DNA from: an uncultured Candidatus Saccharibacteria bacterium | GTDB taxonomy: Bacteria > Patescibacteriota > WWE3 > 2-01-FULL-39-13 | DNA length: 64,000 bases | Direction of reading: 5' to 3' | NCBI GenBank assembly: GCA_964370865.1 | Contig: CAYJKF010000002.1 | Location: 84,719 to 148,718, forward strand | Shown: positions 1 to 48,363 of the stretch, one piece after another | Layout: the number at the start of each line of letters is the position of its first letter | Numbering within the stretch: the first letter of the stretch is position 1 | Program-made: the position numbers and the translations under genes | Notes under the pieces: generated by a model | What the model saw: the letters and a program-made list of their open reading frames with translations, nothing else | Told to the model about the DNA's origin: nothing | Databases searched by the model: none

Positions 1-768
1 ACAACCTTTATTATACTTTCGTGGGTTCTGACAATTATTTATATTTTTTCCGCGCGAAAAGTTCTGTTTAAAAATACTTTAATTGTTAGCAATCTATTTT
101 TTATCGGTTTATATCTTAATGTCCATTACAACTCCTTTTCGCGCGTGAGTAGCTCAGGAGCTACTTTTGAAAAACGTTCGAGATTTATTGATACTATAAT
201 TTTTGACGGTTTACTTGGTGAAAATAAATATTGGATCCTGGGATTTATTCTAGTAGCTATTATTATTTACTTTTATAAAAAAAAGGAAAAATTTAAATTC
301 GAAGCATTTAATGCAGTGATGTTTTTCTTTATATTATTCCCCGCGATTTTCTTGGTGAACTCAGTTCCTCAAATGACACCGACCCCAAGATATCTAATAA
401 TTTGGTGGCCGGCCTTTGCCTTATGTTTTGTTTGGTCAGTAAGCTACATTAATAGGTTACTACCTTATAAACTAGGTTTTATTATTCCTTTTCTATATTT
501 AATGCCAATTCTTCAATCCCAGAGCAAATACTTAACAACTAAAGATCAATCACAATCTAGAATAGTTAATGAGGATATTCAGAAAATAAAATCAGCGGGT
601 CTAAAGTATTGCGTAGGAGATTATTGGGACATAGGTCCAATAATGTATTACAGTCATTTAGAAATAAAATGTTGGACAGATAAGTCAATTCAATCCAGAT
701 GGGATGTTGATTATTTGGATGATTACAAGGAAAAGTATGCGCAAGAGAATTATTATCTTTTAGATTAG
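1..768 (+). CDS. Membrane protein, 5'-partial (the frame is open from window position 1; the ORF track begins at a GTG at 145). Possibly the C-terminal part of a GT-C/ArnT-like glycosyltransferase.
   Basis: No stop codon in frame 1 from nt 1 to 768. Several hydrophobic segments. Lies next to a Dpm1-like GT2. No recognised catalytic motif. Confidence 0.35.
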   Translation, partial: TTFIILSWVLTIIYIFSARKVLFKNTLIVSNLFFIGLYLNVHYNSFSRVSSSGATFEKRSRFIDTIIFDGLLGENKYWILGFILVAIIIYFYKKKEKFKFEAFNAVMFFFILFPAIFLVNSVPQMTPTPRYLIIWWPAFALCFVWSVSYINRLLPYKLGFIIPFLYLMPILQSQSKYLTTKDQSQSRIVNEDIQKIKSAGLKYCVGDYWDIGPIMYYSHLEIKCWTDKSIQSRWDVDYLDDYKEKYAQENYYLLD

Positions 769-774
769 TAGCGC

Positions 775-1650
775 TTACTTATCTTTTTGAAATAATTTCC
801 GAACGATTCCATTAACAATATTAATAATTCTTTGTTTCTCATTTTTCATATTACCGGTGTTGACGTATAAATTTAATTCTTCGTCATATTGTTTAATGCG
901 ATTTCTCCCATCGTTGTAATATCCCAAGATTCTCATTCTGTACCACACTGCTAACGTATCGATGACAAAGTTCCATAATCCATTTTGTGTAAAAACACCT
1001 TTTATAGTAGATTTGCCAAAATCCATATTTACTTCTACCGGAGCTTCGTAAATTTTTCTAAATCCAAGTAAATGAGCCACTGCCAATATTTCAATATCAA
1101 AGGCAAATCGCTTAACCACCAGTTTATCGAGAACCTTCTTTAGTACAGTACTTCTGTACGCTTTAATTCCAGTTTGAGTGTCGTGTATCTTTAATCCGAA
1201 CAATAATTTTACGAATAAAAAGTATCCATAGCTGAGAATTCTTCTTTTGAATGGATATTCGATTAAACTTGCGGGATGCATTTTTGAGCCAATTATTATA
1301 TCCGCGTCGTACCATTTCATATGTTCAAGCAACATAATAAGTCCCTGCGGATTTATATCTCCCCCTGCATCTATAAACATTGTTATGTCACCCTTAGCTT
1401 TTTCCATACCATATCGAACCGCCTGCCCTTTGCCTTTATTTGATTTGTAACCAAATACTTTTATAGATTTATGTTTAGTTTTCTTCGCATTTTCGTATGT
1501 TTTATCCAATGATGTTCCATCAACAACTACTATAATTTCAAATTTGTATGGAGTGGATTTTAAGGATTTATAGATATTTTCAATATCGTTTAGAATATAT
1601 TTTTCTTGTTTATATGCCGGAACGATTACAGATAAGCGTTCAATTTGCAT
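775..1650 (-). CDS. Glycosyltransferase family 2 (polyprenol-phosphate sugar synthase, Dpm1-like)
   Basis: N-terminal SVIVPAYKQEKYI...IIVVVDGTSLDKT...FIDAGGD is typical of the GT2 DXD fold. 291 aa. Confidence 0.75.
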   Translation of the reverse strand: MQIERLSVIVPAYKQEKYILNDIENIYKSLKSTPYKFEIIVVVDGTSLDKTYENAKKTKHKSIKVFGYKSNKGKGQAVRYGMEKAKGDITMFIDAGGDINPQGLIMLLEHMKWYDADIIIGSKMHPASLIEYPFKRRILSYGYFLFVKLLFGLKIHDTQTGIKAYRSTVLKKVLDKLVVKRFAFDIEILAVAHLLGFRKIYEAPVEVNMDFGKSTIKGVFTQNGLWNFVIDTLAVWYRMRILGYYNDGRNRIKQYDEELNLYVNTGNMKNEKQRIINIVNGIVRKLFQKDK

Positions 1651-2926
1651 TGCCTTTATTCCTAATTAAATTAAAGATGTTCGTTGAGATTGCTAATATA
1701 ACTATTATGCACGAAATGATATTTACAACTATTATTTCACGTAATGTATCATGATAAAAAACAATTCCTGCTAATTGAATAATTGGTGTTAAGAAAGTTA
1801 CTGACGCTAATTTAAACTTTGAAATTGAAATCAAAAATATCGTTAAGAGATTTAATAAAGTGAAGAAAATCATATATAAAGCGTATATTCCAAGAAGTGG
1901 AACAGCATCTATATATTTGTTACTAAAAAGAATTTCAACCAAAAATCCTGGGAAGAAGGTATAGACCAAAAAACTTACAAAAGATATCGTAGTAGAAACT
2001 AATACTGCTAGTAAAAATGGCCTAGTAAAATCCAACCCTTTTTTAAAGTTTTGAGCGCAAATTGGTAAAACTATTATGGTTATTGGGGACGCTGCAAAAA
2101 AGATAATCTTTCCAATGACCGAAACTGAACTATAAATTCCGGCTGTCATTTCCGGAAAATAATACTTAACCATAAGTACGTCTACGTTTTGCAATAGACT
2201 GAGACCGGCGACACCAAGAGAGCTATATACTGAATATTTCACTAGCTCACTAAAATCTTCTCTTGCGAAATCGTAATTTTTTATCGTCAGATTTTTTTGT
2301 AACAAAATGAATTGTATATATCCAACTAAAAGTGTTGCTATAAAGAGTCCCCAGAAAATATCCACCAGCCCTAATCCAAGAAGGATAATAAATATGGCTA
2401 CAAGAAATTTTGTAAACGCTGCTAAAAATAGTGACAAAGAATATGCTTTGAATCTAAGCAACCCTTGTAGAAAAGGAACCATAAAGCCAATCAGGTTTCC
2501 TGCGAAAATTGCGAAGGAGAAAGCAAAAATTATTTCTCGATTAGTGATTTTTAAAGTATCACTTATAAATGGGGTAAAAAAGATAATTAAAAGACTAATT
2601 GTTAGCGCAAGAAAAAATTGGACTTTAAAAACTGTTACAAAGAGTGCAGATATACGTACTGGATAATTGTCGTCTTTTATTTCAGCGACTAATTTAGTTA
2701 TGCCTCCAGTAAAAAAAGTTAGTAATGTTAATAAAATTCCACTGAGTGAAAATAATGAAACCAAAATTGAATAGTCTTCAACCGAAAGATATCTTCCCGA
2801 GGCGAGTTGAAAAAGATAAGCGAAAAAATTAGCAAAAAGTGAAGCGGCTATTATGATAAAAGAGCGACTCAGTATGTACTTATCTCCTGACAGTTTATCC
2901 ATTACTAATCGTAATATTTTATTCAT
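1640..2926 (-). CDS. Polysaccharide biosynthesis protein, Wzx-like flippase (MOP superfamily)
   Basis: 428 aa with about 12 predicted TM helices and flippase-like hydrophobic periodicity. Sits in a glycosyltransferase cluster. Confidence 0.6.
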   Translation of the reverse strand: MNKILRLVMDKLSGDKYILSRSFIIIAASLFANFFAYLFQLASGRYLSVEDYSILVSLFSLSGILLTLLTFFTGGITKLVAEIKDDNYPVRISALFVTVFKVQFFLALTISLLIIFFTPFISDTLKITNREIIFAFSFAIFAGNLIGFMVPFLQGLLRFKAYSLSLFLAAFTKFLVAIFIILLGLGLVDIFWGLFIATLLVGYIQFILLQKNLTIKNYDFAREDFSELVKYSVYSSLGVAGLSLLQNVDVLMVKYYFPEMTAGIYSSVSVIGKIIFFAASPITIIVLPICAQNFKKGLDFTRPFLLAVLVSTTISFVSFLVYTFFPGFLVEILFSNKYIDAVPLLGIYALYMIFFTLLNLLTIFLISISKFKLASVTFLTPIIQLAGIVFYHDTLREIIVVNIISCIIVILAISTNIFNLIRNKGNAN

Positions 2927-2996
2927 TTGTATAATTTTATCAATTTTTCGTTAATTTAATACGTGACTATAATTTTCTGATATCGTTTAATAGATT

Positions 2997-3998
2997 ATGA
3001 ACATCACAGTTGTAGGAGGAGGCACGGGTACGTATACCGTCCTAAAGGGTATTAAGGACCTTCCTAATGTAAATATTACAGCGATTGTAACGTCGGCAGA
3101 TAGCGGTGGCAGTACTGGCGTCCTAAGAGATGAATTTGGAATACTTCCAGTAGGAGATTTCAGACAATGCATAGTAGCGTTAGCTGAGGATGGCGCATCA
3201 CCACAGAATGAACATTTACTTCGTGATCTTTTCGAATACAGATTTTCTAAAGGAGGCACCGGATTATCAGGACATAACTTTGGTAATTTATTTATAACTG
3301 CCTTAACCGATATTTTAGGAAGTGAAGAGTTAGCTTTTCGAAAAGTTTCAAAGATTTTAAATATAAAAGGGAAAGTATACCCAGTAACATTCGAAAAAAT
3401 TCAGTTAGTTGCTGAATATGAAGATGGATCAATGTTAATTGGAGAGAAGATGATTGATGAACCTCCTTCAGTACATGATGGAACGATGCGAATAAAAAAG
3501 TTGTGGGTCCAGCCAAATGCAGAAGTATTTCCAAGAGCCAAAGAGTCGATTATGAACTCTGATTTAATTGTATTTGGTCCTGGAGATTTATATTCGAGCA
3601 CAATAGCAAACATTGTCATAGATGATTTTGCTGGAATAATCAGTCATTCTAAAGCTAAAATCGTATTTATAACAAATATGATGACTAAATATTCTCAAAC
3701 ATATGACTTTAAAGTATCTGATTTTATAAAAGAGACTGAAAAATATTTACGTAAACCGGTTGACTATATTTTGGTTAACTCGGCTCCCATTCCAAAGGAT
3801 ATTATTGAAAACTATACCGTTGAGAAGGCAATACCTGTGATAAATGATATGAAAGATGATAAAAGGGTTATAGAGGCTGATTTGATTTCTGAAATTCTAT
3901 ACGAGCAAAAGAATAACGATGTCGTAAAAAGGAGTGTGTTAAGGCACAGTAGTAAAAAGATTGCAGACCAACTGCAGAGAATTTTGGAAATAGTTTAG
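2997..3998 (+). CDS. yvcK: YvcK/CofD-like protein (UPF0052, gluconeogenesis factor family)
   Basis: N-terminus VVGGGTGTYTVLKGIK...TAIVTSADSGGSTGVLRDEFG matches the YvcK/CofD signature. Confidence 0.7.
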   Translation: MNITVVGGGTGTYTVLKGIKDLPNVNITAIVTSADSGGSTGVLRDEFGILPVGDFRQCIVALAEDGASPQNEHLLRDLFEYRFSKGGTGLSGHNFGNLFITALTDILGSEELAFRKVSKILNIKGKVYPVTFEKIQLVAEYEDGSMLIGEKMIDEPPSVHDGTMRIKKLWVQPNAEVFPRAKESIMNSDLIVFGPGDLYSSTIANIVIDDFAGIISHSKAKIVFITNMMTKYSQTYDFKVSDFIKETEKYLRKPVDYILVNSAPIPKDIIENYTVEKAIPVINDMKDDKRVIEADLISEILYEQKNNDVVKRSVLRHSSKKIADQLQRILEIV

Positions 3999-5935: not shown

Positions 5936-8020
5936 ATGAAACGTTTAAATTTCTCAAATAAGAATTCAATTAGTAGTTCCTCACCTTCTTTTTCTCCAAG
6001 CGGAAGTGCCTCAAGAGAAAAATATAATTTTTCAAATAAATTCAGATTCCCTAAGATTAGAATAAATGTGAAATGGATTTTGATTACTCTTGGAATATTT
6101 CTCGGTTTAGTTTTAGTAATAGGATTAGCCGGTTATTTTCTAGTTGCTAAACCAGTATTAGCAATTGCAGATGACGCAAAAAAATTAAAAGATTCTACCT
6201 ATGCGATAAATGCAGGCTTAGAAAATCAAGATCTTGAAGAAATAAAAGGTGGCATTGATAACACTAAAAAAGAGCTCGAAAGATTTAAAGGAAATTTAGA
6301 AACTAATTCTAAGTTGTTAAGAAAATTACCAAGAGCAAATATTTATTACGAGGATGGGCAAAATTTAGTAGTAGTGGCCGAAGAAGCATTAAGCTTGGGT
6401 GAATTGACAATTAGTATTATTGAACCTTATGCCTCTGACTTGGGTTTTGCCTCGGGTGACCAAGAAGCAAGAAATATTCCGGCACAGGAGCGTGTTATTA
6501 AACTTATGCGATTAATGCCAGAATTCTCTCCAAAAGTTAATGAGATTTCACAAAGAATGGTGAAGATTAATGATGAATTAAATAAAATTGATGCCTCAAA
6601 TTATCCAACTAAATTACCATGGGTGGTCAAATATGCTGGAGTAGATCCTGAAATGAATTTACAGGAGCAGATATTAGATATTCAGGCTATTACCAAAGAA
6701 ATTGCTCAAAAGGCGCCTCAGTTTGAAGCATTCTTTAATGCAGTGCCAGAATTTATGGGTTTGAATGAGCCAAAAACTTACATGATAGTTATGGCCAATA
6801 ACTATGAATTACGAATGAGCGGTGGATTTAATACATATATAATTTTAGTTACATTTGCAGATGGAATTCCTGATATTACAAATTCCATCGATACATACTT
6901 TATTGACGAAGGCGCTAGAGCTGGCTCTTTTGGAAGACCAGTTAGGGCGGTTCCATACCATTTGAAGAATTACTTATACCTTTCTGGAAACACATTTAGA
7001 TGGTATGCAAGGGATGCAACCAGCAACAATGCTGATTTCCCGCTTGCCGCAGATGATTTAGTGAATCTTCACTGGAAAAACGCAGGTGGCTTAATACAAC
7101 AATTTGATGGAGTTATAAGCATAAATAATGATGTTGCGGTGGATATCTTAAGAGCAGTGGGGCCAGTTATGACTGATAAATATTCAATTAAGAGAGATGA
7201 TAATACGTATGTAACGGTACCAGTCACTGAATTCAATGCAGATAATGTTATTTACGAACTAGAGAATATTGCAGGTGGAAAATTAGCTGAAACTTTGGGA
7301 AGAAAGGAGATTATTAAATTTTTAGCGACTTCTATTTTGACGAAAATTTATACCTCTGAAGCAACAAATCTAGTTCATATAATGAGAGTTGGTCTTGATT
7401 CCTTAAGCAAAAAGGATGTAATGCTATATTCATATGATCCTGAAGTGCAAAAAGCATTTGAAGATTTAGGATATGGAGGGCGGATTGCTTCTGTACCAGA
7501 GGGCTCAGATTATCTTCATGTAAACAGAAGTAACTATGGTTCAGGAAAAGCTGATTGGACACAACCTGGATTTGTATATCAAACTGTAGATAAAAAAGTC
7601 GAAGTTGTTGATGGTAAAAAAATTAGTACAGTAAACGTCACGGTTAAGAATCCAAAGCGTCCGGAGTGGTTCAATATAGATCCATGCTGTTTCTATAATG
7701 CTTATATGAGGGTATATGTACCGATAGGATCAAAAATGATATCTGTAACAACATCCGATGGTCAAGATGCTAAAGGTGCAGAATTTGTAGATGATAAAGT
7801 TCAAAAAACTTATATTGAATCATTTACAAGGCAGCCAAAAGAAACTGATTTAACTATAACGTATGTTTACGAACTTCCAGATAGTGTTAACTTGGATGAT
7901 TACAATCTAGTCCTACAAAGACAGTCAGGTACTACGATCGATGAATATAAAGTTACTGCTAACGGAAAAACGGAAGATATACTTCTAAATTCTGACAAGG
8001 TGATACATATTAGTCGATAA
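5936..8020 (+). CDS. Membrane-anchored extracytoplasmic protein, DUF4012-like
   Basis: N-terminal Ser-rich region plus a single TM helix. Central NNYELRMSGGF motif resembles the conserved NNaExR-tGG motif of DUF4012 proteins, which accompany cell-wall glycopolymer clusters. 694 aa. Confidence 0.5.
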   Translation: MKRLNFSNKNSISSSSPSFSPSGSASREKYNFSNKFRFPKIRINVKWILITLGIFLGLVLVIGLAGYFLVAKPVLAIADDAKKLKDSTYAINAGLENQDLEEIKGGIDNTKKELERFKGNLETNSKLLRKLPRANIYYEDGQNLVVVAEEALSLGELTISIIEPYASDLGFASGDQEARNIPAQERVIKLMRLMPEFSPKVNEISQRMVKINDELNKIDASNYPTKLPWVVKYAGVDPEMNLQEQILDIQAITKEIAQKAPQFEAFFNAVPEFMGLNEPKTYMIVMANNYELRMSGGFNTYIILVTFADGIPDITNSIDTYFIDEGARAGSFGRPVRAVPYHLKNYLYLSGNTFRWYARDATSNNADFPLAADDLVNLHWKNAGGLIQQFDGVISINNDVAVDILRAVGPVMTDKYSIKRDDNTYVTVPVTEFNADNVIYELENIAGGKLAETLGRKEIIKFLATSILTKIYTSEATNLVHIMRVGLDSLSKKDVMLYSYDPEVQKAFEDLGYGGRIASVPEGSDYLHVNRSNYGSGKADWTQPGFVYQTVDKKVEVVDGKKISTVNVTVKNPKRPEWFNIDPCCFYNAYMRVYVPIGSKMISVTTSDGQDAKGAEFVDDKVQKTYIESFTRQPKETDLTITYVYELPDSVNLDDYNLVLQRQSGTTIDEYKVTANGKTEDILLNSDKVIHISR

Positions 8021-8660
8021 TTCCGTAGCTTTTTATAAACAGATCAGTCTTTTCCTTTAAGTATTTAAGGATAGGCTGGTCTGTTTTTTCGAAATACGCA
8101 TCTTCTTTATTCACAATTTCTTCAAAAATAGAATCCTCCAGAAAAAATATCTTTTTCATTAATTCTGGGTTTTTAATATTCATCTGTTCATAGAAATCCA
8201 TAAATTCACTTTTCGTATAAAAACCATTAATCTTCATAAGTTTTACCAAATACCCTAGGACCAATCCTTTAGTCGGAGTTTGATTAAATAGCTCAATAGC
8301 TTTTTTGAGTAATTTAAAGTTAGTAGGATTTGGATCATCATTTGGAATCAATTTATCGGTTATTTCTAAAATGGAGTAAAGATAAAGAGTTACATCATAG
8401 TCAGTAGCCGACAATTTTATGTTATGAATGGAATTAGCTTGCGTTATTAAATATCTGTCATAGGTCTTAATAAGGTAAATCGTAGCTATTGAACCAGGTT
8501 CCAGATGACTACGCTTTTTAGAAGTAATTTTGCGAATTCCTTTAGCCTTGCAGGAAATTTTCCCTAATTCCTGAGTTAAAACGGTAAGTATCTTATCCGC
8601 ATCCTTATAATTTGTTCTTTTTATTACAATTCCTGTAGTCTTTATATAGTCAGACATCAA
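8010..8660 (-). CDS. recO: DNA repair protein RecO
   Basis: N-terminal OB-fold signature GIVIKRTNYKDADKILTVLT..G. Length 216 aa. Confidence 0.7.
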   Translation of the reverse strand: MMSDYIKTTGIVIKRTNYKDADKILTVLTQELGKISCKAKGIRKITSKKRSHLEPGSIATIYLIKTYDRYLITQANSIHNIKLSATDYDVTLYLYSILEITDKLIPNDDPNPTNFKLLKKAIELFNQTPTKGLVLGYLVKLMKINGFYTKSEFMDFYEQMNIKNPELMKKIFFLEDSIFEEIVNKEDAYFEKTDQPILKYLKEKTDLFIKSYGIID

Positions 8661-8683
8661 GAATTATTATAATATACTCACAT

Positions 8684-10015
8684 ATGGATAGAAGCCAAAA
8701 GATTATTTCTCTCGCAAAAAGACGTGGTTTTGTATTTCCCTCATCCGAAATATATGGTGGTTTTAGTTCTACATACGACTACGGTCCTATGGGAGCTCAA
8801 ATGCTCAAGAATATTAGGGATTTGTGGTGGAAATACTTTGTAGAGCTTAGAAGTGATGTAGTAGGGCTAGATGGGGCAATATTTAGTCACCCTAAGACTT
8901 GGGAAGCCAGCGGACATGTTGATTCTTTTAACGATCCATTAGTAGAAGATAAAGTCACTCACATTAGATATAGAGCAGACCATTTAATCGAGGAAAACTT
9001 AAAAATTGATACCGCTAAAATGTCATTTGATGAAATGCAGAAAATCATAAATGACAATAAGATTATAAGTCCGGATGGGAATGAACTTACCGAATTAAAG
9101 TCTTTTAATCTTTTAGTACAAGCCGAACTTGGAAGTACTGATGAAAGCAAAATTAAAGCTTATCTAAGGGGAGAAACCTGCCAGGTTATATTTCTACAGT
9201 ACTTGAATGTACTTCAGTCGATGAGAATGAAAATTCCTTTTGGAATTGCTCAAATTGGTAAAGCATTTCGAAATGAAGTTACCACAAAAGATTTTATATA
9301 TAGAACTAGAGAATTCGAACAAATGGAATTAGAATTTTTCATTCATCCAAATGATGGAGAAAAATGGTATGAGTATTGGAAACAATTTATGCTTAATTGG
9401 TGTGTTGAAGAACTTGGGTTTCCATTGACCAAATTTCGATATAGGGAAATTCCAAAAGAGGAAATGTCTCACTACGCAAAAATACAAAGTGATTTTGAAT
9501 TCGAGTCTTCTTCAGGAAAATGGTTTGAATTATCTCCTCTAAATCACCGTGGTGAATGGGATTTGTCCAGACACCAGCAATATAGTGGAGAGAATTTTGA
9601 GTATAGAGACCCTGAAACAAATGAGAGATTTTTGCCAAATGTTATCGAGATTTCGATGGGAATTAATCGAATTCTTTATGCTTTACTCGATAATGCGTAC
9701 GAAGAAGATGGAGATCGAGTTGTTCTTAAACTTAATGAAAAAGTTGCACCATATCAATATGCGGTTTTCCCATTAGTGAGAAATAAGCCAGAAGTAGTAG
9801 GTAAAGCACGTATGGTTTACGATTTACTTGTTAATAAAGGTTTTAGAGTCAGCTATGACGACCGAGGAAATGTTGGTAAGAGATATTATTCCCAAGACGA
9901 AATCGGTACTCCAAAATGTATAACTATCGATTACCAGACTCTTGAAGACGATACAATTACAGTTAGAGATCGAGATTCAATGGAACAAGTTAGAGTTAAT
10001 ATAAATGACCTTTAA
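8684..10015 (+). CDS. glyQS: Glycine--tRNA ligase (alpha2 homodimeric type)
   Basis: RRGFVFPSSEIYGGFSSTYDYGPMGAQMLKNI N-terminus and class II motifs. 443 aa. Confidence 0.9.
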   Translation: MDRSQKIISLAKRRGFVFPSSEIYGGFSSTYDYGPMGAQMLKNIRDLWWKYFVELRSDVVGLDGAIFSHPKTWEASGHVDSFNDPLVEDKVTHIRYRADHLIEENLKIDTAKMSFDEMQKIINDNKIISPDGNELTELKSFNLLVQAELGSTDESKIKAYLRGETCQVIFLQYLNVLQSMRMKIPFGIAQIGKAFRNEVTTKDFIYRTREFEQMELEFFIHPNDGEKWYEYWKQFMLNWCVEELGFPLTKFRYREIPKEEMSHYAKIQSDFEFESSSGKWFELSPLNHRGEWDLSRHQQYSGENFEYRDPETNERFLPNVIEISMGINRILYALLDNAYEEDGDRVVLKLNEKVAPYQYAVFPLVRNKPEVVGKARMVYDLLVNKGFRVSYDDRGNVGKRYYSQDEIGTPKCITIDYQTLEDDTITVRDRDSMEQVRVNINDL

Positions 10016-40228: not shown

Positions 40229-40861
40229 TTATGGTAGTTGAAGATTAGTTCCAGGTATTATAAGTGGATTACCGTTTTGCAAATATCCAACTTTATTAAT
40301 ATCAGCTATTTTTTTCCATTGCTTTCCTTCGCCGTATTTTCCTTCTGAAATTTCCCAAAGTGTATCGCCTCTTATTACTAAGTGAGTGTTACCAGTTATG
40401 TCTCCTGGATTATAATTAACTGCTACCCAAACACCTGGTGCGACTTTCACATTTTTAGTTAGGTTTGAATCAGTTGATGTGCTAACTATTCCACTGGGCT
40501 TATTTGTTGTTGGAGTAGGAGTTGCAATATTTCCACCTTTTTGACTTCCAACATTATTACCTCCAGCAAAACCAAGTACTTTATCGGACACAGGTTGATT
40601 GACATTTGGTGTTGCCAAAGTAGGAGCTTTACTTGGGGTTGGCAACGAATCGTCTAATGCCACATCTTGAGAAGACTCTGATGGTTCGCCAGTTTCCACT
40701 GTTGCTAAAGGAATTTCATTATTATCTCCAGCTTCTTTGAAGTATCGATACATAAAAACAATAATCGTACTGACAATGAGAAGGCCAATTACCAAAAAGA
40801 TGATAGCAACTTTGCCTGTATGTTTACTTTCGTTTACGGTTGTATTTATTTCATCTGCCAT
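40229..40861 (-). CDS. LysM domain peptidoglycan-binding membrane protein
   Basis: N-terminal TM helix, a Pro/Thr/Ser-rich linker, and a C-terminal LysM domain (GDTLWEISEGKYGEGKQWKKIADINKV...IIPGTNLQLP). Confidence 0.75.
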   Translation of the reverse strand: MADEINTTVNESKHTGKVAIIFLVIGLLIVSTIIVFMYRYFKEAGDNNEIPLATVETGEPSESSQDVALDDSLPTPSKAPTLATPNVNQPVSDKVLGFAGGNNVGSQKGGNIATPTPTTNKPSGIVSTSTDSNLTKNVKVAPGVWVAVNYNPGDITGNTHLVIRGDTLWEISEGKYGEGKQWKKIADINKVGYLQNGNPLIIPGTNLQLP

Positions 40862-40934
40862 ATTTATATTTTCTGGGCAGGGAAATTATTAGTGAGTGTA
40901 TTATAGGATATAAACCTCACAGACTCAACTTGTG

Positions 40935-41351
40935 CTAGAAAACCGTATTTTGAAGTTCAGAGTCAGCTGAGTCAAAATCAAGCTTATCAAGAGACTCATT
41001 CATCGAATCGGTGCTTTCATCTAGAGAATCAGTACTTCCATCAATTTCCATAATTAAGGAGTCAGAATCCAATTCGTTTTCTTCAACTGGGGTTGGAGTT
41101 ACTACTGGAGTAGCCTCTGCTGTTGGTGTTGGTACTATTGCTTCCTCATTCGTAGCTATCTTATCGTTTGGAAGCATTTCTAAAAAATAATATAGAGCTC
41201 CTGCAATTAGCAATAGAAATACTATTCCGACCGCAACGTATAAAGGTAATTTACTCCTACCTTTTTCAGGTGTTTCGGTCAGGTTTGTGTTAGAAGTTTG
41301 GTTAATTTGAGTTGTATCTGGTTGGGGTTGAATCGTTTGTATATTTTCCAT
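40935..41351 (-). CDS. Hypothetical membrane protein with an acidic Asp/Ser-rich C-terminus
   Basis: One TM helix (LPLYVAVGIVFLLLIAGALYYF). The C-terminus is rich in D/E/S. No homology signal. Confidence 0.4.
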   Translation of the reverse strand: MENIQTIQPQPDTTQINQTSNTNLTETPEKGRSKLPLYVAVGIVFLLLIAGALYYFLEMLPNDKIATNEEAIVPTPTAEATPVVTPTPVEENELDSDSLIMEIDGSTDSLDESTDSMNESLDKLDFDSADSELQNTVF

Positions 41352-41354
41352 TGA

Positions 41355-41957
41355 TTATTCTAAACTAGAAATTACTTCTCTTAAATCCGTTTTTATTGTT
41401 TTCAATCGACTAATTATACTTCTAGTATCTTCTTTTATTTCCGTTAACTTTGCTTTAATTTCCTCAACTTCTAATTCCTCAATGTTTTCATATTTTACTG
41501 TAAGTTCAGAAATTTCTACTTCTAATTGGTCAATTTCTGTTTGAATTGCAACAAGCTTAGCTGTTGCTACATCGTTTTCGAAGCCACTATCTACGATTCT
41601 TTTTTGAATTCGCTCTACTATTTCAGTTAACTTTTCTGTTACCTTCAATAGTCTTGCTTGTGATTTAGCGGTATGTTCTTTGATAAGTGAAAGTCTTGCC
41701 TGCTGTTGATCAGAGAATTTTCCTTTGAGATTTTCTACTCTTAACTCAGTTCTTTCTTTGAATGCCTTTCGAAATTCCTCGTATTTTTCCATCCTTTGAG
41801 GAGTGGTTTCAGGTTGTCGTTCCAGCCTTTCACGACCGGGGTCAACTTGTAACTGATTCTGTACACCATTTGGGACTTCCCGTTGGGCTATTGAATTAGC
41901 TGGGAAACATAGTAAGGCAAGTGAAATCAAAAAAAGAGGTATATATATACTTTTCAT
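41355..41957 (-). CDS. Secreted coiled-coil protein, hypothetical
   Basis: N-terminal signal peptide (MKSIYIPLFLISLALLCFPANSIA). The remainder is a charged heptad-like coiled-coil. Confidence 0.4.
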   Translation of the reverse strand: MKSIYIPLFLISLALLCFPANSIAQREVPNGVQNQLQVDPGRERLERQPETTPQRMEKYEEFRKAFKERTELRVENLKGKFSDQQQARLSLIKEHTAKSQARLLKVTEKLTEIVERIQKRIVDSGFENDVATAKLVAIQTEIDQLEVEISELTVKYENIEELEVEEIKAKLTEIKEDTRSIISRLKTIKTDLREVISSLE

Positions 41958-42181: not shown

Positions 42182-43369
42182 ATGGTTAGCAAATTTTTAA
42201 ATAAAGACGATTTAGCCAAATTAAAATCCGAAACACCAACTACTAAGAAAATTGTTTTTACCTATGGGACTTTTGATCTAATACACAGCGGTCATGCAGC
42301 ATATTTAGTTGAAGCGAAAAACTTAGGTGATGTGTTAATCGTTGGCGTTACGACTAATAAATCTCGTAGAGAAATGAGAGGAAAAGGATTTCCTCTAGTT
42401 GATCAAAAAAACCGCGCGGAGTTACTAACATATTTTGATTTTGTGGATGGAGTTATATACGTTGATGACCGAAATTTACTTCAACAACTAAAAATACTTA
42501 AACCTGATATTTTTTTTACACACTCTTTAGATTGGAAAAGCCATTTAAGAAAACCTGCAGAAGAAAAGTTTGTTGAGGGATATGGTGGACAGGTCTATAA
42601 ACGAAAACCACAGGGACCATTTGTTTCCTCTTCTATGATTGTAGAATTAGTTGCCGATTTAAAAATAAAAGAAGTTGTCGAATATTTCTTTGGAAAAATA
42701 AAGATTGACCTAACGGATGGTAATTGGAAAGTTGGAGCGTTCTCTGGATTAAAAACGAAAATTAGAACAGAATCATTAGTTTTTCCAGAGCACTTAATGT
42801 CACTTGGATTATTTGGGAGTAAATTCGGAAGAAAAATTATCCCTAAAAATAAATTAAGCATTATCGTTAAAAAATTGAAAAAAGATTCCAAGAAAGTCGT
42901 TCTGTCAGCAGGTTCTTGTGATTTACTTCACGTGGGACATGTTCGTTTCTTTTCCAAAGCCAAGGAAGAGGGCGATATTCTGATACTTGGTATACCAACG
43001 GATAAAATAATTAAAAAGCAAAAGGGTAGAGGACGTCCAATCATAAATGAAAATTCTAGAGCAGAACTTATGTCGTTTTTCCCTTTTATTGATTATATTT
43101 TTCTATTCGATGATGAAAGTATTTTGCAACCTATTATTGATTTACAGCCTGATGTTTTTTTTACGGTCAAAGAAGAATGGAATAATATCGAAAATTCATC
43201 TATATCTGATAATATTAAAAAGTGGGGAGGACGAATTGTTACCGCTCCTCCACAAGCAGATGGACTTTCTTCTAGTAAATTAATTAAACGAGCTGCGGGT
43301 ATTCGTGTAAGAGAACTTTTTAAAGAAGTCCTACATGAAGCCGAGAAACTTACTAGTCTTAAAGATTGA
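42182..43369 (+). CDS. Tandem cytidylyltransferase-domain protein: two HxGH nucleotidyltransferase modules, Pcyt2/TagD-like
   Basis: First module VFTYGTFDLIHSGHAAYLVEAK. Second module SAGSCDLLHVGHVRFFSKAKEEGDILILGI. Both carry the HxGH motif of the CTP-transferase family. 395 aa. Confidence 0.65.
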   Translation: MVSKFLNKDDLAKLKSETPTTKKIVFTYGTFDLIHSGHAAYLVEAKNLGDVLIVGVTTNKSRREMRGKGFPLVDQKNRAELLTYFDFVDGVIYVDDRNLLQQLKILKPDIFFTHSLDWKSHLRKPAEEKFVEGYGGQVYKRKPQGPFVSSSMIVELVADLKIKEVVEYFFGKIKIDLTDGNWKVGAFSGLKTKIRTESLVFPEHLMSLGLFGSKFGRKIIPKNKLSIIVKKLKKDSKKVVLSAGSCDLLHVGHVRFFSKAKEEGDILILGIPTDKIIKKQKGRGRPIINENSRAELMSFFPFIDYIFLFDDESILQPIIDLQPDVFFTVKEEWNNIENSSISDNIKKWGGRIVTAPPQADGLSSSKLIKRAAGIRVRELFKEVLHEAEKLTSLKD

Positions 43370-43851
43370 TGACTATGCATACTGATTATTCTAATTTTAA
43401 AGCACGACAAAATGGAGAGTACGAAAAAGCATGGCAGTCTACCGGTAAATGTGTGTTTTGTGACTTGAGAGATAAATATATTATTTATGAGAAAAATGGA
43501 GTGGTCCTTACAACAAATTTATTTCCATACATCGATGGGCATTTAATGGTAATTCCACGTCGTCATTCTGAAACTATTCAAGAGGTTACGGAGGAGGAAT
43601 GGGTTGAGTTCAAACATATTATCGAACTGGGCTCTGAGTTGCTAAAAAAAACTCTAAAAATAAAGGATGTCTGGGTTTTATATCGAATTGGAGAAGGCTA
43701 TAGGGCTGGAAAATCCGTCGTTCATAGTCATCTCCACTTGATTCCATATTCACTTGATTTAATTAAAATGGAGTATCAAGAATTAAATATTTCACCGCAG
43801 GAACTAGCAGAGAAATTACGAAAAAGTATCAAGAAAAATGAAACTCAATAA
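43366..43851 (+). CDS. HIT (histidine triad) family nucleotide hydrolase/transferase
   Basis: Histidine triad VVHSHLHLIPY near the C-terminus. N-terminal CVFCD. 161 aa. Confidence 0.75.
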   Translation: MMTMHTDYSNFKARQNGEYEKAWQSTGKCVFCDLRDKYIIYEKNGVVLTTNLFPYIDGHLMVIPRRHSETIQEVTEEEWVEFKHIIELGSELLKKTLKIKDVWVLYRIGEGYRAGKSVVHSHLHLIPYSLDLIKMEYQELNISPQELAEKLRKSIKKNETQ

Positions 43852-44362
43852 CCACCAGAAAAATGATTTTATAAAGAAGGCCGCATTTATTGCCGACAAA
43901 TCATCATGTTTATATAAAGTTGGTTGTGTTGGTGTTATTGAAGATGTTGGACAGACTATTCCATCAAGCGCTCTAAAAGATTTATCATATAGAAAAAAGG
44001 ACGGTTTTATATATCTTAAAAGTTGGAATGAAACTTTACATGGCGAAATTTTTTGCCAAGAATGTGATGACAAAGGAAATAAAGTTTGTATCCGGCAAGT
44101 TGAAAATTTAAAAGGTAGAGATTTCCAGAAAGTATGTTCAATTCATGCTGAATCCAACTTAATAGCTAAATTCGCAAGATATGGAATTTCTACAGAAGGG
44201 ATGGTTTTGTTTATAACAAATACGCCGTGTTATGTATGCGCAAAAAATCTAATTCAAGCTGGGGTTTCTAAGGTTTATTATCTAGCTGAGCATACTGACA
44301 CAACAGGAATGGATATACTTAGGACAAACGGAATAATTTCAGAGAAAATTTCATTTAACTAG
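43838..44362 (+). CDS. dCMP (deoxycytidylate) deaminase, ComEB-like
   Basis: Zinc-binding deaminase motifs HAESNLIAKFA and PCYVCAKNLIQAG. dCMP-deaminase-type insertion carrying extra Cys/His (CQECDDKGNKVC). Confidence 0.75.
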   Translation: MKLNNHQKNDFIKKAAFIADKSSCLYKVGCVGVIEDVGQTIPSSALKDLSYRKKDGFIYLKSWNETLHGEIFCQECDDKGNKVCIRQVENLKGRDFQKVCSIHAESNLIAKFARYGISTEGMVLFITNTPCYVCAKNLIQAGVSKVYYLAEHTDTTGMDILRTNGIISEKISFN

Positions 44363-46114
44363 AGTTTGATACAAGCCTGTGGTTTTAAAGCCATTCTTTT
44401 TATAATATTCTCTCGTTCCAACTGAAGATATTACTGCAAGTTTTTGAAAATTATTTTCTTTTGAAATCTCTAAGGACTTTGCAATTAATGTCTTTCCCAA
44501 ACCTAAATGTTGGGTTTTAGCCTTTTCACCTATATTTAGGCTTTCTCCATAAATGTGAATTTCACGAATAATCGCGGCTCCATCCAATTCCTCGATAAAA
44601 TGTGGTGAATCCAGATTAGGCAAAGATAAACGTAAAAATCCTGCAATTTGATTTTCGTTTGTAACAAATTCCAAGAACTTTTCAGAAGAGACAGATGTTT
44701 CATATTCCAAAATTTTTAATTTAAGATCTCCTAATTCGACTTTTTTACCGCGAATTTCTCTATATCTGATTTCCTGTATATCAGCTTTTTGATTTTTGAT
44801 ATTTATTTCAACTGTTTGACGTAGATTAGTTTTTTTATTTCCAACTACAATATCTTGAGATCCAATATCCCTAATCATTCGAGTAATCCTGCAGTATGCT
44901 GGTGTTAATTTATAAGCTTCCTCTAGAACGTGAGTTAGTTCTTCATAAGTATATGGTTTCCATAAACCTTTTTTATAATATTGCATTAACTCTGCGCTAG
45001 CGATTAGTGAACATGGATAAATTTTTATTTCATCGGGCCTAAATTTAGGATCACTAAAGACTTTCTTGTAATCCTCAATATCTTTTTGTGGTGTTGAACC
45101 ATATAAGTTTGGCATCCAGTGCGCGTGAATTTTAAATCCTGCTTTCCTTAATATCGCGACTGCATTTGCAGTAACAGAAGAATCATGTCCTCTCTTATTA
45201 AGCATCAAGACTTTATCATTCAAGCTTTGAAAACCAATTTGTACCTTTGTAGCTCCAAGTTTTCGAATACGAATAACTTCGGTTTCTGTTATTTCATCTG
45301 GTCTTGTCTCTATAACAAGTCCAATACAGCGAGTTTCTGCTAATTCATTCTGTGAGTGAACCGTAAATAATTCGTCCCATGTTGCATGTTCGGTTTCAGA
45401 TTGTGGTTTTTTTGGAAGTATCGCCATCGAAACGATTTGATTATAAGTTTTATTAAACTGTGTTCCATCAATTTCTTCTAATAACTTATCTTCGAATGGA
45501 ATCTCCATTTTCGTTTCAACAGGAGTTGGCAACGTAAAAGTATCGAAATCATTCATAGCATCGAAGCATCTTTTAACAAACCATATCTGATAAGGTTCGG
45601 GGTATGAGGTCCAGGTTCCACCAAGAATAATTAATTCAATTTTATCTGTTGAATGGCCAAGTGCTTTATATGCAACTAGCCTGTTAAAAGTTTGTGCATA
45701 CGGGTCGAATTTATTTCTAGTCGCTCTTTGTGCTCCAGGTTCATCTGATAAATAGCTTTTTGGCATTCGAACATCATTTGGACAAAAAATACATTTTCCA
45801 GGACATGGAAATGGCTTGGTAAGTACGGTAACTGGAGTTACTCCTGAGATAGATCTTACTTCTTTGGATTTCAAATTTTGTCTCAAAGTTTTAAGTTCGG
45901 TAGGAGTAAGGGTTATTTCATCAGTCTTCAAAAATTCAATTAGTGATACTGTTAGATCGCTTTTTTTGAAAATTCCTTTATCTCCCTTTGGAAACTGCCT
46001 AAATGCTGTCTGAATGTCTTTATCATCAGCCTTTTCCATTTTAGCCAGCTTGTAGATTAGCGGTATTGTCTGATTTTTATTCTTATTTATGTCAAAATGA
46101 TAGCTATTATTCAT
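44351..46114 (-). CDS. elp3: Elp3-like tRNA wobble-uridine modification enzyme (radical SAM + GNAT acetyltransferase domains)
   Basis: RSISGVTPVTVLTKPFPCPGKCIFCPN reproduces the Elp3 radical-SAM signature (R.ISG...V.V..KP..CP....C.YCP). C-terminal GNAT motif GLGKTLIAKSLEISKENNFQKLAVISSVGTREYYKKNGF. 587 aa. The start may be the internal Met at 46039. Confidence 0.8.
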   Translation of the reverse strand: MNNSYHFDINKNKNQTIPLIYKLAKMEKADDKDIQTAFRQFPKGDKGIFKKSDLTVSLIEFLKTDEITLTPTELKTLRQNLKSKEVRSISGVTPVTVLTKPFPCPGKCIFCPNDVRMPKSYLSDEPGAQRATRNKFDPYAQTFNRLVAYKALGHSTDKIELIILGGTWTSYPEPYQIWFVKRCFDAMNDFDTFTLPTPVETKMEIPFEDKLLEEIDGTQFNKTYNQIVSMAILPKKPQSETEHATWDELFTVHSQNELAETRCIGLVIETRPDEITETEVIRIRKLGATKVQIGFQSLNDKVLMLNKRGHDSSVTANAVAILRKAGFKIHAHWMPNLYGSTPQKDIEDYKKVFSDPKFRPDEIKIYPCSLIASAELMQYYKKGLWKPYTYEELTHVLEEAYKLTPAYCRITRMIRDIGSQDIVVGNKKTNLRQTVEINIKNQKADIQEIRYREIRGKKVELGDLKLKILEYETSVSSEKFLEFVTNENQIAGFLRLSLPNLDSPHFIEELDGAAIIREIHIYGESLNIGEKAKTQHLGLGKTLIAKSLEISKENNFQKLAVISSVGTREYYKKNGFKTTGLYQTLVK

Positions 46115-46819
46115 ATGAATGCCGAAACGATAGACTCCATTATAAGGTTAAACAACAACTTCTACAAAAAGGTTGCTCAAAGTTTTTCGAATACAAGACA
46201 ACATCCTTGGGATGGATGGAAACGTGTTCTGACTTATATTGAGGAAAATCACGTACAAACTATACTAGATTTTGCATGCGGAAACGGTCGTTTTCTGGAT
46301 TACCTAATTTCTCAAAATATTGAACCTAAATATACTGGGGTGGATTCAAATGAGGACTTGCTAGGCATTGCAGAGAAACATCATCAAAGACACCGATTCT
46401 TTAATCGTGATTTGTTAAATGAAGGATTACCCGGTCGAGAGAAATATGACATGATTGTTTCTTTTGGATTTATGCATCATGTTCCAACGGAGGAAATTCG
46501 AGAGCAGGTTATTTCCAAACTTTTTGATTTACTTAATGAGAAGGGAATTTTAATTCTAACTTTCTGGAGTAATCCAAATCGAAGAGGAATAATTCCACTT
46601 GATAAATTAACAGGCGAAGCTCTTAGGTTAAATAGTGAAATGGGTGAGAATGATTTCTTTTTTGGATGGGAAGGAGATTATGAAACACCGAGGTTTTGTC
46701 ACTTATTCGATGAAGAAGAAGTGATAAAACTCTTAGATAAATATAAACAATTTGAATTATTTAAATCCGATGGACGTACCTCGCAAGATAACATATATGC
46801 TGTATTATTTAATAGATGA
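46097..46819 (+). CDS. trm9: Trm9-like SAM-dependent methyltransferase (tRNA carboxymethyluridine methyltransferase family)
   Basis: FYKKVAQSFSNTRQHPWDGW and ILDFACGNGRFL match yeast Trm9 (VHKVYNEIAPHFSQTRYKPWP and GIDVGCGNGKYL). VSFGFMHHVPTEEIREQVISKLFDLLNEKGILILTFWS matches Trm9 ISIAVVHHWSTRERRVEVIRHVLSKLRQGGQALIYCWA. The start could be the Met at 46115. Confidence 0.7.
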   Translation: MIAIIHMNAETIDSIIRLNNNFYKKVAQSFSNTRQHPWDGWKRVLTYIEENHVQTILDFACGNGRFLDYLISQNIEPKYTGVDSNEDLLGIAEKHHQRHRFFNRDLLNEGLPGREKYDMIVSFGFMHHVPTEEIREQVISKLFDLLNEKGILILTFWSNPNRRGIIPLDKLTGEALRLNSEMGENDFFFGWEGDYETPRFCHLFDEEEVIKLLDKYKQFELFKSDGRTSQDNIYAVLFNR

Positions 46820-48363
46820 GTGAATGGCCCGTATACTTTAAAGACAGACTAACTATTTCGAATTTAAATAGTGCTAACGCTATTGCATGCCTTTGGACTC
46901 CAAAAGAAACAATTGAAAAACTCACTATTCCAGAAGCATATTGCGTTCTAGGCCAGTTGTATACAAAAAAGGGAATCAACTATCTATTAAGAAATATTTT
47001 AGCCAATCCATTTATTAAAAATATTTACTTGGTTGGAAACGACTTAATGGAAAGCGGCGAAGCTCTAGTTAAGTTTTTTGAAAATGGAATCGATGAAAAT
47101 TATAAAATAATTGGTGATGACTCTGCAGTAATAGATAAGGAAATTTCAATAGAAAAAATAAATATCTTGAGAGAAAAAGTTTCATTGGTGGATTTACGTG
47201 GAGCTGATAAATTAACTTCACTAAAAACTGCGATAAAACCCAACGAAGACATTTCATTATGGTCTGAGCCCGAGATGTTCGAAGAACCACCAGCTCCAGA
47301 TATTTCCACATTTCCATCAGAAGTAGATTTAATGAGAATTCGTCGTCCGCTAATATCCGAAGCCTATTTATCAGTACTTAAACACGTGATGCAGTTTGGT
47401 TTGGAGTCGGAGCCAGTTATGAATTATGTTTCAGATACATCCAAATCAATGAAGGAATTATTAAATCTTTCAGTAATTATTACTGATGAGGAGGTGGACT
47501 CCCCAAATGTTCCTGGCTATATGCCATTTAGTGCAACTGACTTGCAAAATTACTACAATGGTTTTTTTAATCCAGATAAAATGACAGAGGATTATACCTA
47601 TGGTGAAAGACTCTTTAATTTCGCAAATGATGAAATTAATGAACTAAAGAAAATATACCCTCATCTCAATATCGATAGATTTCAAAAATATTTTCCAGAG
47701 GGAGGAATCGACCAAGTTGCAATCTCCATCATTCGTAAGCTACAAGGTTTTAAACATGATAAAGGAGCAATTGCCCTTCTTGGAAATCCCTTTACAGATG
47801 TTTTTCCACAACGACCTTCAAAAAAAATACCATGTCTGTTTTTGATCCAATGTCAGATATATCAGGATAAATTAAATATGACTGCCTACTTTAGAAGTAA
47901 CGATATGTACAATGCATGGCCATTGAATGCATTTGCTTTAAGAAAGCTACAGAAGGAGATTGCTGAAAAACTTGATTCAAAACTAGGTTCACTAATAACA
48001 ATTTCAAATATGGCACATATATATGAACATAATTATTCTGATGCCAAAAAAATAATAGATGAAAACTATAAAGGTAATTGTGAATGGGATCCAAGAGGAA
48101 ATATTATTGTTGAAGTTATTAATAAAGAAATCGTAGCCAAATTAATTTCACCAGAAGGAACCGTAGAATTGCGAGAATGGAAAATTGATGGGACGTTACC
48201 TCATGCAGCCAGAGAGTTATCATTTCTAATTGATAAAGATTTAGCAGTTTCAACTTTTGGTAATGCTTTATATTTGGGTAGACAATTTGAAAGAGCCGAG
48301 ACCGCAATAAAACTGAAATTAGAATTTAAACAGGATAACCCACTTGATTTCGAGAAAGTCTAA
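46816..48363 (+). CDS. Thymidylate synthase (ThyA) family protein with a ~180-aa N-terminal extension of unknown fold
   Basis: The C-terminal ~330 aa align with ThyA. [27 protein letters not shown] matches DQI..v...L..dP.SRR.ivsAWNp. [36 protein letters not shown] matches [48 protein letters not shown] matches GGDTHLYSNH. The catalytic Cys is present. Confidence 0.6.
   Translation: [515 protein letters not shown]

Follow-up and report, generated by a model that had tools for sequence, protein, structure and literature searches.

Thymidylate synthesis, an essential process and a classic drug target, has to our knowledge two known solutions, ThyA and ThyX. Canonical ThyA (EC 2.1.1.45; Escherichia coli, Lactobacillus casei) has a W80/W83 segment and a cofactor-closing C-terminal tail, both of which contact folate. 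The short archaeal enzymes grouped in TIGR03283, for example MJ0757 of M. jannaschii, are stand-alone proteins of about 200 residues without flanking domains, and they have a minimal core without the folate-contacting insert or the tail. In protozoa, an α/β dihydrofolate reductase (DHFR) domain of about 160 residues is fused in front of the thymidylate synthase (TS). MtrA is the corrinoid subunit of the methyl-tetrahydromethanopterin (H4MPT):coenzyme M methyltransferase and, together with its cytoplasmic homologues, is represented by the structures 5laa, 5l8x and 8q3v. Here we describe a gene that combines elements of these systems. It lies at 46816–48363 on the forward strand of a 64,000-nucleotide stretch of DNA (the window) from an uncultured Candidatus Saccharibacteria bacterium of the candidate phyla radiation (CPR), and it encodes a TS whose short archaeal-type ThyA core is placed between an N-terminal MtrA-like domain and a C-terminal DUF4346 domain.

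The protein is very likely, on the evidence of its sequence and of its relatives, a genuine deoxythymidine monophosphate (dTMP) synthase with a variant architecture known to the databases. Proteins of this architecture are already annotated automatically as 'thymidylate synthase' and the window adds one member. As a biochemical entity, however, a TS with a de-metallated MtrA domain on one side and DUF4346 on the other is undescribed in the literature searched. Our search returned no relevant paper on the DUF4346, PF04208, TIGR03283, NF002128 or TIGR00284 models or on an MtrA-TS fusion, and papers dealing with folate metabolism in CPR bacteria or with ThyA in archaea make no mention of the fusion.

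A short ThyA core in a three-domain protein

The open reading frame (ORF call and translation) is single and unbroken, with 515 codons plus stop, and holds three Pfam domains, each scoring above its curated gathering threshold (Table 1). The original prediction, made from the sequence alone, had allowed for the N-terminal part being a separate ORF joined by a sequencing frameshift. This possibility is discarded, because more than 100 full-length homologues share the architecture, continuous over the same span. The AlphaFold2 model of the full protein, built from 117 homologues, has a mean predicted local distance difference test (pLDDT) value of 92.6. In it a β–α N-domain of the Rossmann type is joined by a linker in coil conformation to the TS core, which is followed by a C-domain of three strands and two helices. 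Conservation was counted in two sets, 117 closer and 264 broader relatives. Genomic context was taken from a scan in which each GTDB species was represented by a single genome, and from which 80 loci were kept.

Assignment to the TS family, with its nucleophilic cysteine, was correct in the original prediction. PF00303 matches residues 269–416 (E=9e-13, 48.4 bits against a cutoff of 24.3), and Cys340, within 'IPCLF', is present in 117 of 117 closer and 261 of 264 broader relatives. The extent of the ThyA homology had been overestimated at about 330 C-terminal residues; only about 245 (roughly 173–417) align, and the last 98 form DUF4346. The best-scoring TS model is TIGR03283 ('methanogen-type' ThyA), in which residues 175–409 cover model positions 3–200 of 201. 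The top Foldseek matches, at E~1e-12, are ThyA, DHFR-TS, MilA and short phage TS-like hydroxylases. The Foldseek likeness to 9iqu and 9iqc arises because the short TS fold is common to both.

Residues were mapped onto E. coli ThyA with a family hidden Markov model (HMM) and with HHalign. The numbering of the E. coli sequence was checked at known catalytic positions. Although identity to canonical ThyA is only about 17%, the fold and the following active-site residues are shared. P145-C146 of the E. coli enzyme, which includes the nucleophile, corresponds to P339-C340, and the R166/S167/D169/N177 block corresponds to R360, S361 (Ser or Asn across relatives), D363 (Asp in 259 of 264) and N371 (Asn in 258 of 264). 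Y94 and Y209 correspond to Y262 and Y403. All these positions (C340, R360, S361 as Ser or Asn, D363, N371, Y262 and Y403) are kept in 95–100% of both sets of relatives. Of the partner-subunit arginine pair of canonical ThyA, R126/R127, the first aligns with K316 here, a position that is R or K across the family. The position of H147 is Leu.

Two parts of canonical ThyA that contact folate are missing. E. coli residues from about 67 to 82, around W80, and the final stretch of 38 (227–264) have no counterpart in the HHalign comparison, and DUF4346 starts where the canonical tail would be. In this respect the core resembles the minimal core of the TIGR03283 enzymes; these stand alone, whereas the core described here is embedded between two further domains. 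A helical insertion of about 26 residues lies between the loop of the Tyr94 equivalent and an 'IDQ' motif. Among the 117 closer relatives, 55 have this insertion, and most of the others have 5–7 residues in its place. Canonical ThyAs are also variable in length at this site, as in the small domain of L. casei.

Specificity within the TS fold can be read from three positions. At position 177, Asn goes with deoxyuridine monophosphate (dUMP) and Asp with deoxycytidine monophosphate (dCMP); at the L143 position, a hydrophobic residue goes with a methyl product and an acidic one with a hydroxymethyl product; at position 169, Asp marks folate enzymes and Asn the flavin-dependent 5-hydroxy-dCMP synthases (PMC13326640). 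In hydroxymethylases of the T4 gp42 and MilA type, Asp stands at N177 where the substrate is a cytosine nucleotide, and the L143 position is acidic; this protein has Asn and Lys337 at these sites. The flavin-dependent synthases RB69 gp48 and HY126 AfhB have Asn169 and Asp177, where this protein has Asp and Asn. Across the family, 225 of 264 relatives carry K, R, N, S or H at residue 337; Glu occurs in 6 of the 117 closer ones. Asn at 177, Asp at 169 and a non-acidic L143 position would thus indicate a dUMP methylase belonging to neither modifying branch. The original prediction had pointed to the residues that separate methylation from hydroxymethylation, and the signature is of the methylase type.

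The same prediction had left two outcomes side by side, a plain dTMP route and a pyrimidine-modifying, possibly hypermodifying, module. The latter would make the protein a hydroxymethylase or hydroxylase, or an enzyme acting on dCMP, CMP or UMP, with the neighbouring nucleotidyltransferase and HIT protein completing the pathway. Such activities do exist among TS-fold paralogues, MilA and a phage dCMP hydroxylase are among the structural matches, the two neighbours are otherwise unexplained, and one Nanoarchaeota locus has a second TS-like paralogue adjacent. Yet Asn at N177 and Asp at D169 prevail throughout, an acidic residue at the L143 position is found in at most a small minority, and the dCMP deaminase encoded upstream consumes dCMP rather than providing it. 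The thymidylate kinase gene (tmk) is nearby in some loci, and among CPR bacteria and DPANN archaea the family is widespread as a housekeeping gene of the chromosome. An enzyme of this kind is thus very improbable; hydroxymethylase, hydroxylase and dCMP-specific paralogues were all rejected on the diagnostic residues, and the ordinary housekeeping character of the chromosomal region also speaks against a hypermodification module. The plain dTMP route is supported by the dUMP-type residues, by linkage to the deaminase gene in about 40 loci, by a natural fusion to a deaminase (below) and by tmk in 7 loci.

The flanking domains and their possible ligands

The N-terminal domain belongs with MtrA. 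PF04208 matches residues 2–141 (E=7e-9, 35.9 bits against a cutoff of 25), the single query sequence matches 5laa at E=6e-7, and a profile of 18 N-domains matches 5laa, 5l8x and 8q3v with E-values from 5e-18 (5laa, over the whole domain) to 1e-13. The original prediction had correctly recognised an extra conserved domain in the first 180 or so residues, but the statement that these have no counterpart does not survive the MtrA matches. It had also set DHFR aside, rightly; there is no DHFR match among Pfam families, and DHFR was rejected as the identity of the domain in favour of the MtrA-like assignment. Protozoan DHFR-TS has a similar total length and a comparable layout, but whole-chain superposition in Foldseek gives a template modelling score of about 0.3 and a root mean square deviation of about 25 Å. 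The N-domain profile, searched against 1.84 billion representative proteins, gave only 1129 matches at E<=1e-3. Almost all of the best 150 are about 450–570 residues long and have the domain at their N-terminal end, as in the query; shorter matches are probably fragments. It follows that this subtype of the domain seems essentially restricted to the TS architecture.

In MtrA, His84 ligates the cobalt, Glu54 hydrogen-bonds to His84 and Asn55 touches the corrin; Asp17, Lys52-N, Thr53, Gly57 and Asn64 hold the nucleotide tail of cobalamin; Tyr18 and Val61 sandwich the dimethylbenzimidazole, and a meander motif, GAIPF(Y/F)xEN, is present (Wagner et al., PMC4915002). The Rossmann-type topology and the tail-binding residues recur in the N-domain. 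Asp17 corresponds to D10, Thr53 to T50 (T or S in 251 of 264), Gly57 to G53 and Asn64 to N60 (95%), and R59, conserved at 94%, adds positive charge to the pocket. The most conserved residues of the domain fall in the loops that form the ligand site of MtrA. In contrast, the metal-binding residues are lost. His84 is replaced by S80, followed by a two-residue deletion, and the position is Ser or Thr in 254 of 264 relatives and His in none. Glu54 is replaced by K51 and Asn55 by K/R52, and the relatives' alignments have no conserved His anywhere in the domain. Tyr18 is Leu, and the meander motif is not kept; the aligned segment reads 'SAVIDKEI', with a family consensus 'A.IDKEI'. No transmembrane helix follows the domain, which continues instead into a soluble linker and the TS core, and the hosts are not methanogens. 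By these patterns the domain is a relative of MtrA that has lost the cobalt ligands and preserves the nucleotide-tail pocket in a more basic form.

Homology to a corrinoid protein over the full length of the domain, together with conservation of the tail pocket, raises the idea that a corrinoid is still bound, base-off and His-off, and takes part in one-carbon (C1) transfer or reduction, making the enzyme a B12-assisted thymidylate synthase. Some corrinoid proteins, such as the corrinoid iron-sulfur protein CFeSP, do function without a His ligand from the protein, and the association of DUF4346 and MtrA-like regions with pterin-binding proteins echoes the pairing of MtrH with MtrA. We nevertheless judge this scarcely likely. 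The position of His84 is never His, those of Glu54 and Asn55 have become Lys and Arg, no other His is conserved and Tyr18 is Leu. The hosts are ultra-reduced symbionts, and ThyA chemistry consists of methylene transfer and hydride, not of methyl-cobalt chemistry. A conventional, His-on corrinoid binder was rejected on the residues themselves (S80, K51, no conserved His).

The C-terminal domain is matched by PF14251 over residues 425–507 (E=1e-7, 32.7 bits against a cutoff of 29.6). Modelled alone with AlphaFold2, it reaches a pLDDT of 88, and Foldseek comparison of this isolated model with the PDB gave no match at E<=0.001. DUF4346 matches, weakly, the end of NF002128 ('tetrahydromethanopterin S-methyltransferase subunit A'; positions 320–369 of a 390-residue model), which carries an MtrA-like region at positions 142–268, ahead of the DUF4346-like end. 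A further weak match is to the C-terminal end of TIGR00284, a pterin-binding protein resembling dihydropteroate synthase. NF002128 and TIGR00284 share the accessory domains and have no TS core, and the matches to them are far below the family cutoffs. They suggest that MtrA-like and DUF4346 regions occur side by side outside TS, near pterin-binding enzymes; in the 515-residue protein the TS core separates the two.

We lean, if only slightly, towards reading the protein as the housekeeping dTMP synthase of a CPR bacterium equipped with an MtrA-like/DUF4346 accessory module for the tail of its cofactor. The dCMP deaminase of the same operon would supply dUMP; Cys340 would add to C6 of dUMP; and a reduced pterin acting as C1 carrier would donate a methylene group, whose transfer and reduction would give dTMP. 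CPR genomes usually carry folA, glyA and/or folD (PMC11974145), which makes 5,10-methylene-tetrahydrofolate the probable donor and most likely the C1 carrier in these bacteria. The MtrA-like and DUF4346 pair would bind a moiety that is anionic or resembles a nucleotide, the most plausible candidate being the non-pterin tail of the C1 cofactor. In this way the pair would compensate for the stripped-down cofactor site of the core. Since the core is without the folate-holding elements and its flanking domains occur alongside pterin enzymes, such a module would be the most economical reading. Taken by itself, the role of the two domains as a binder of the cofactor tail is a tentative proposal, possible and a good deal less secure than the enzymatic identity of the core.

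Several observations weigh against this proposal, or against parts of it. The score of the best TS model, TIGR03283 (132.1 bits), is below its trusted cutoff of 174.55. The second partner-subunit arginine, R127, is replaced by G317 in the clade of the query and is Arg in 73 of 264 relatives. The full-length model has a predicted template modelling score of 0.72, so that inter-domain geometry is moderately certain at best. The DUF4346 matches that connect the domain to pterin enzymes are weak (E=0.0018 for NF002128 and E=0.11 for TIGR00284). The cofactor specificity of archaeal-type ThyA is itself unsettled (PMC9012536, PMC9931769). Finally, the ligand of the conserved basic pocket could just as well be a nucleotide acting allosterically or a redox cofactor.

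The allosteric case would have dTTP, dCTP or dTMP occupying a phosphate-ribose-base pocket in the N-domain and tuning TS activity, with DUF4346 as a structural element. It corresponds to the version of the plain dTMP route in the original prediction that included a regulatory domain. The residues retained from MtrA are those that hold a nucleotide moiety, to which basic K51, R/K52 and R59 are added, and the TS gene lies in a nucleotide-metabolism operon with dCMP deaminase, an enzyme classically regulated by dCTP and dTTP. We know of no ThyA regulated by such a domain, however, and because the MtrA-like and DUF4346 regions co-occur outside TS, in NF002128, a shared cofactor-related role is preferred to regulation specific to TS. 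We regard allosteric control as unlikely.

In the redox case, the flanking domains would bind NAD(P)H or a flavin and act as a functional analogue of DHFR-TS or ThyX. Either the pterin would be regenerated or the methylene would be reduced with no oxidation of the folate, so that DHFR became unnecessary. The N-domain is of the Rossmann type and its nucleotide pocket is basic and conserved, the window and the surroundings of the gene in the 80 loci (up to 10 kb away) yielded no FolA homologue, TS-fold enzymes can use flavins (9iqu, 9iqc; PMC13326640), and the operon nucleotidyltransferase has weak matches to flavin adenine dinucleotide (FAD) synthetase. However, the domains have no Gly-rich dinucleotide motif, flavin signature or Pfam redox family, and residue 169 is the Asp of folate enzymes and not the Asn of the flavin-dependent branch. 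The FAD-synthetase matches are below threshold, and the match to RfaE domain II is far better. CPR genomes commonly carry folA (PMC11974145), and its absence from a flank of about 20 kb says little. A redox module is, on this evidence, quite unlikely. We hold equally doubtful the broader notion that the MtrA-like/DUF4346 module confers chemistry beyond that of canonical ThyA, using a non-folate or tail-bearing C1 cofactor or a redox cofactor to make dTMP without a separate DHFR. Candidate cofactors in that event might be a corrinoid held with no His ligand, a nucleotide of the flavin or nicotinamide kind, or a pterin resembling H4MPT.

Operon context and neighbouring genes

The window is an ordinary stretch of CPR chromosome. 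It encodes a dcw cluster (MraZ, MraW, FtsW, MurG, FtsA, FtsZ), RecO, LemA and HtpX, together with type-IV-pilin-like proteins, GatCAB, PyrG, DnaE and ClpB. FolA, GlyA, FolD and ThyX were not found in these 64 kb, which says little about the whole genome; likewise, the negative outcome of a phmmer search with E. coli FolA, which covered the window and up to 10 kb around the gene in each of the 80 loci, is uninformative for the genomes.

Table 1 Features of the thymidylate synthase gene and its neighbours (positions in the window)
Feature	Coordinates	Strand	Basis
Whole ORF, three-domain thymidylate synthase (MtrA-like, ThyA core, DUF4346)	46816..48363	+	ORF, Pfam, AlphaFold2
N-terminal MtrA-family Rossmann-type domain, residues 1-142	46816..47241	+	PF04208, family profile versus MtrA structures, beta-alpha repeat
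Conserved N-domain loops, residues 46-80 (GQLYTKKG...RN...P...G.D...S), equivalent to MtrA cobalamin-binding loops	46951..47055	+	Alignment to MtrA residues of PMC4915002
Linker, residues 143-172, conserved 'W.EP..F.EP' and 'PSE'	47242..47331	+	AlphaFold2 coil, pLDDT 67-86; conservation in relatives
Short archaeal-type ThyA catalytic core, residues 173-417	47332..48066	+	TIGR03283, PF00303, Foldseek, HMM/HHalign versus E. coli ThyA
Variable helical insertion of about 26 residues within residues 268-298 of the ThyA core	47617..47709	+	Alignment of 117 relatives
Codon of nucleophile Cys340 (E. coli C146)	47833..47835	+	'IPCLF' in translation
C-terminal PterinBD-DUF4346 domain, residues 418-515, three strands then two helices	48067..48360	+	PF14251, AlphaFold2 domain model
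Tandem nucleotidyltransferase, two RfaE-domain-II-like halves	42182..43369	+	PF01467 twice; TIGR02199 201.9 bits versus 181.5
HIT-family protein	43366..43851	+	PF01230; position kept in about 39 loci
dCMP deaminase	43838..44362	+	PF00383; ComEB-like match
Elp3-type radical-SAM/GNAT enzyme	44351..46114	-	TIGR01211 457.6 bits versus cutoff 350
Class-I S-adenosylmethionine (SAM) methyltransferase	46097..46819	+	Generic SAM-methyltransferase families

In Patescibacteria the gene is the last of an operon, following genes for a nucleotidyltransferase, a HIT protein and dCMP deaminase in that order. This arrangement is found in about 40 of the 80 loci, down to 34% identity, and the genes are co-directional and often overlap. 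The dCMP deaminase gene is directly upstream of TS in about 40 loci. Loci with the operon include L002 and L008-L051. The first genes of the operon are fused in some loci, giving ORFs of about 725–745 residues (L036, L049, L055), and the HIT or deaminase ORF is about twice its usual length in some.

In the window, genes for an Elp3-type enzyme and a methyltransferase stand between the deaminase and the TS. The start ATG of the TS gene shares the sequence ATGA with the TGA stop of the methyltransferase gene, and because of this overlap the two are probably translationally coupled. The original prediction had named these neighbours correctly as tandem cytidylyltransferase-like, HIT, dCMP deaminase, Elp3 and methyltransferase genes; the specific name Trm9 is not established, the matches being to generic SAM-methyltransferase families. 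It had also drawn attention to the Elp3 and methyltransferase pair. The pair is seen only in L001-L009, the clade of the window, and is therefore a clade-specific insertion outside the conserved module, in which it was rejected as a member. The Elp3 gene, which is full-length, is divergent from the methyltransferase gene and overlaps it by 18 nucleotides. The pair might mark an (m)cm5U34 tRNA modification of the eukaryotic or archaeal style.

An ORF of about 287 residues adjoins the TS gene on the opposite strand in 21 Patescibacteria loci, for example immediately downstream in L030 at 2598-3461 (-); it is absent from the window. By motifs alone it resembles aminoglycoside phosphotransferases and choline kinases, with no NCBIfam match, and the putative kinase could serve in nucleoside or deoxynucleoside salvage.

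Elsewhere in the window, three successive ORFs of 210, 138 and 200 residues occupy 40229-41957 (-), between the pilus-like cluster and the nucleotide operon. They are low-complexity or coiled-coil-like with signal- or transmembrane-like N-termini, and the 210-residue ORF has no Pfam match. A CofD/YvcK-family protein (PF01933, E=7e-78) is encoded at 2997-3998 (+) among glycosyltransferase genes and is probably a cell-envelope factor of the YvcK type rather than an enzyme of F420 biosynthesis.

Distribution and significance

A protein search gave 434 significant matches. Among the 120 best listed, nearly all have the same three Pfam domains, and the source names, where given, read 'thymidylate synthase'. 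The genome scan placed relatives in at least 224 species representatives; of the 80 loci kept, nearly all span the query from end to end. The hosts include Patescibacteria (WWE3, 'Saccharibacteria', Dojka-, Shapiro-, Collier- and Wolfebacteria), DPANN archaea (Woese-, Aenigm- and Nanoarchaeota) and a few Chloroflexota. The closest locus, from a Patescibacteria metagenome-assembled genome (MAG), encodes a protein 92% identical and is syntenic with the window. The original prediction had also considered that the extra domain might be the known N-terminal region of long archaeal-type ThyA enzymes, without additional function. This comes near to what was found, in that the domain is a standard part of a large TS family. 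In one relative of 733 residues (P0226), the MtrA-like, TS and DUF4346 domains are naturally fused to a C-terminal dCMP deaminase.

Some relatives vary the architecture. Two longer proteins, P0194 (862 residues) and P0218 (625 residues), have about 255 and 155 extra N-terminal residues, respectively, with no Pfam match. In a Nanoarchaeota MAG (L078), a TS-core-only paralogue of 402 residues at 486-1694 (+) lies directly upstream of the three-domain TS, so that two TS-family genes stand in tandem. It scores 69.7 bits with TIGR03283 and retains the PC and RS.D motifs, but MtrA and DUF4346 domains are absent. In a Saccharibacteria-labelled MAG (L026), the TS is split into two adjacent ORFs, 7445-7876 and 7886-8923, a split that may come from a frameshift or a sequencing error or may be genuine.

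The architecture, with its 224 or more species representatives and about 1,100 sequence clusters at 50% identity, appears to provide the TS for a large part of the CPR and of the DPANN archaea. An InterPro run would reveal the domains at once; their function is the real question and one that is directly testable. If the flanking domains are merely binders of a cofactor tail or regulators, the outcome would be a refinement of annotation and not a discovery. If the enzyme were instead to work without DHFR, it would constitute a third solution to thymidylate synthesis in CPR bacteria and DPANN archaea. In either case, the ligands of the flanking domains would show how a minimal TS core holds its C1 cofactor, and their identity would bear on the cofactor specificity of archaeal ThyA. 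It would also be the first functional handle on DUF4346 and on the MtrA homologues of non-methanogens, and would clarify the dependence of ultra-small symbionts on the folates of their hosts.

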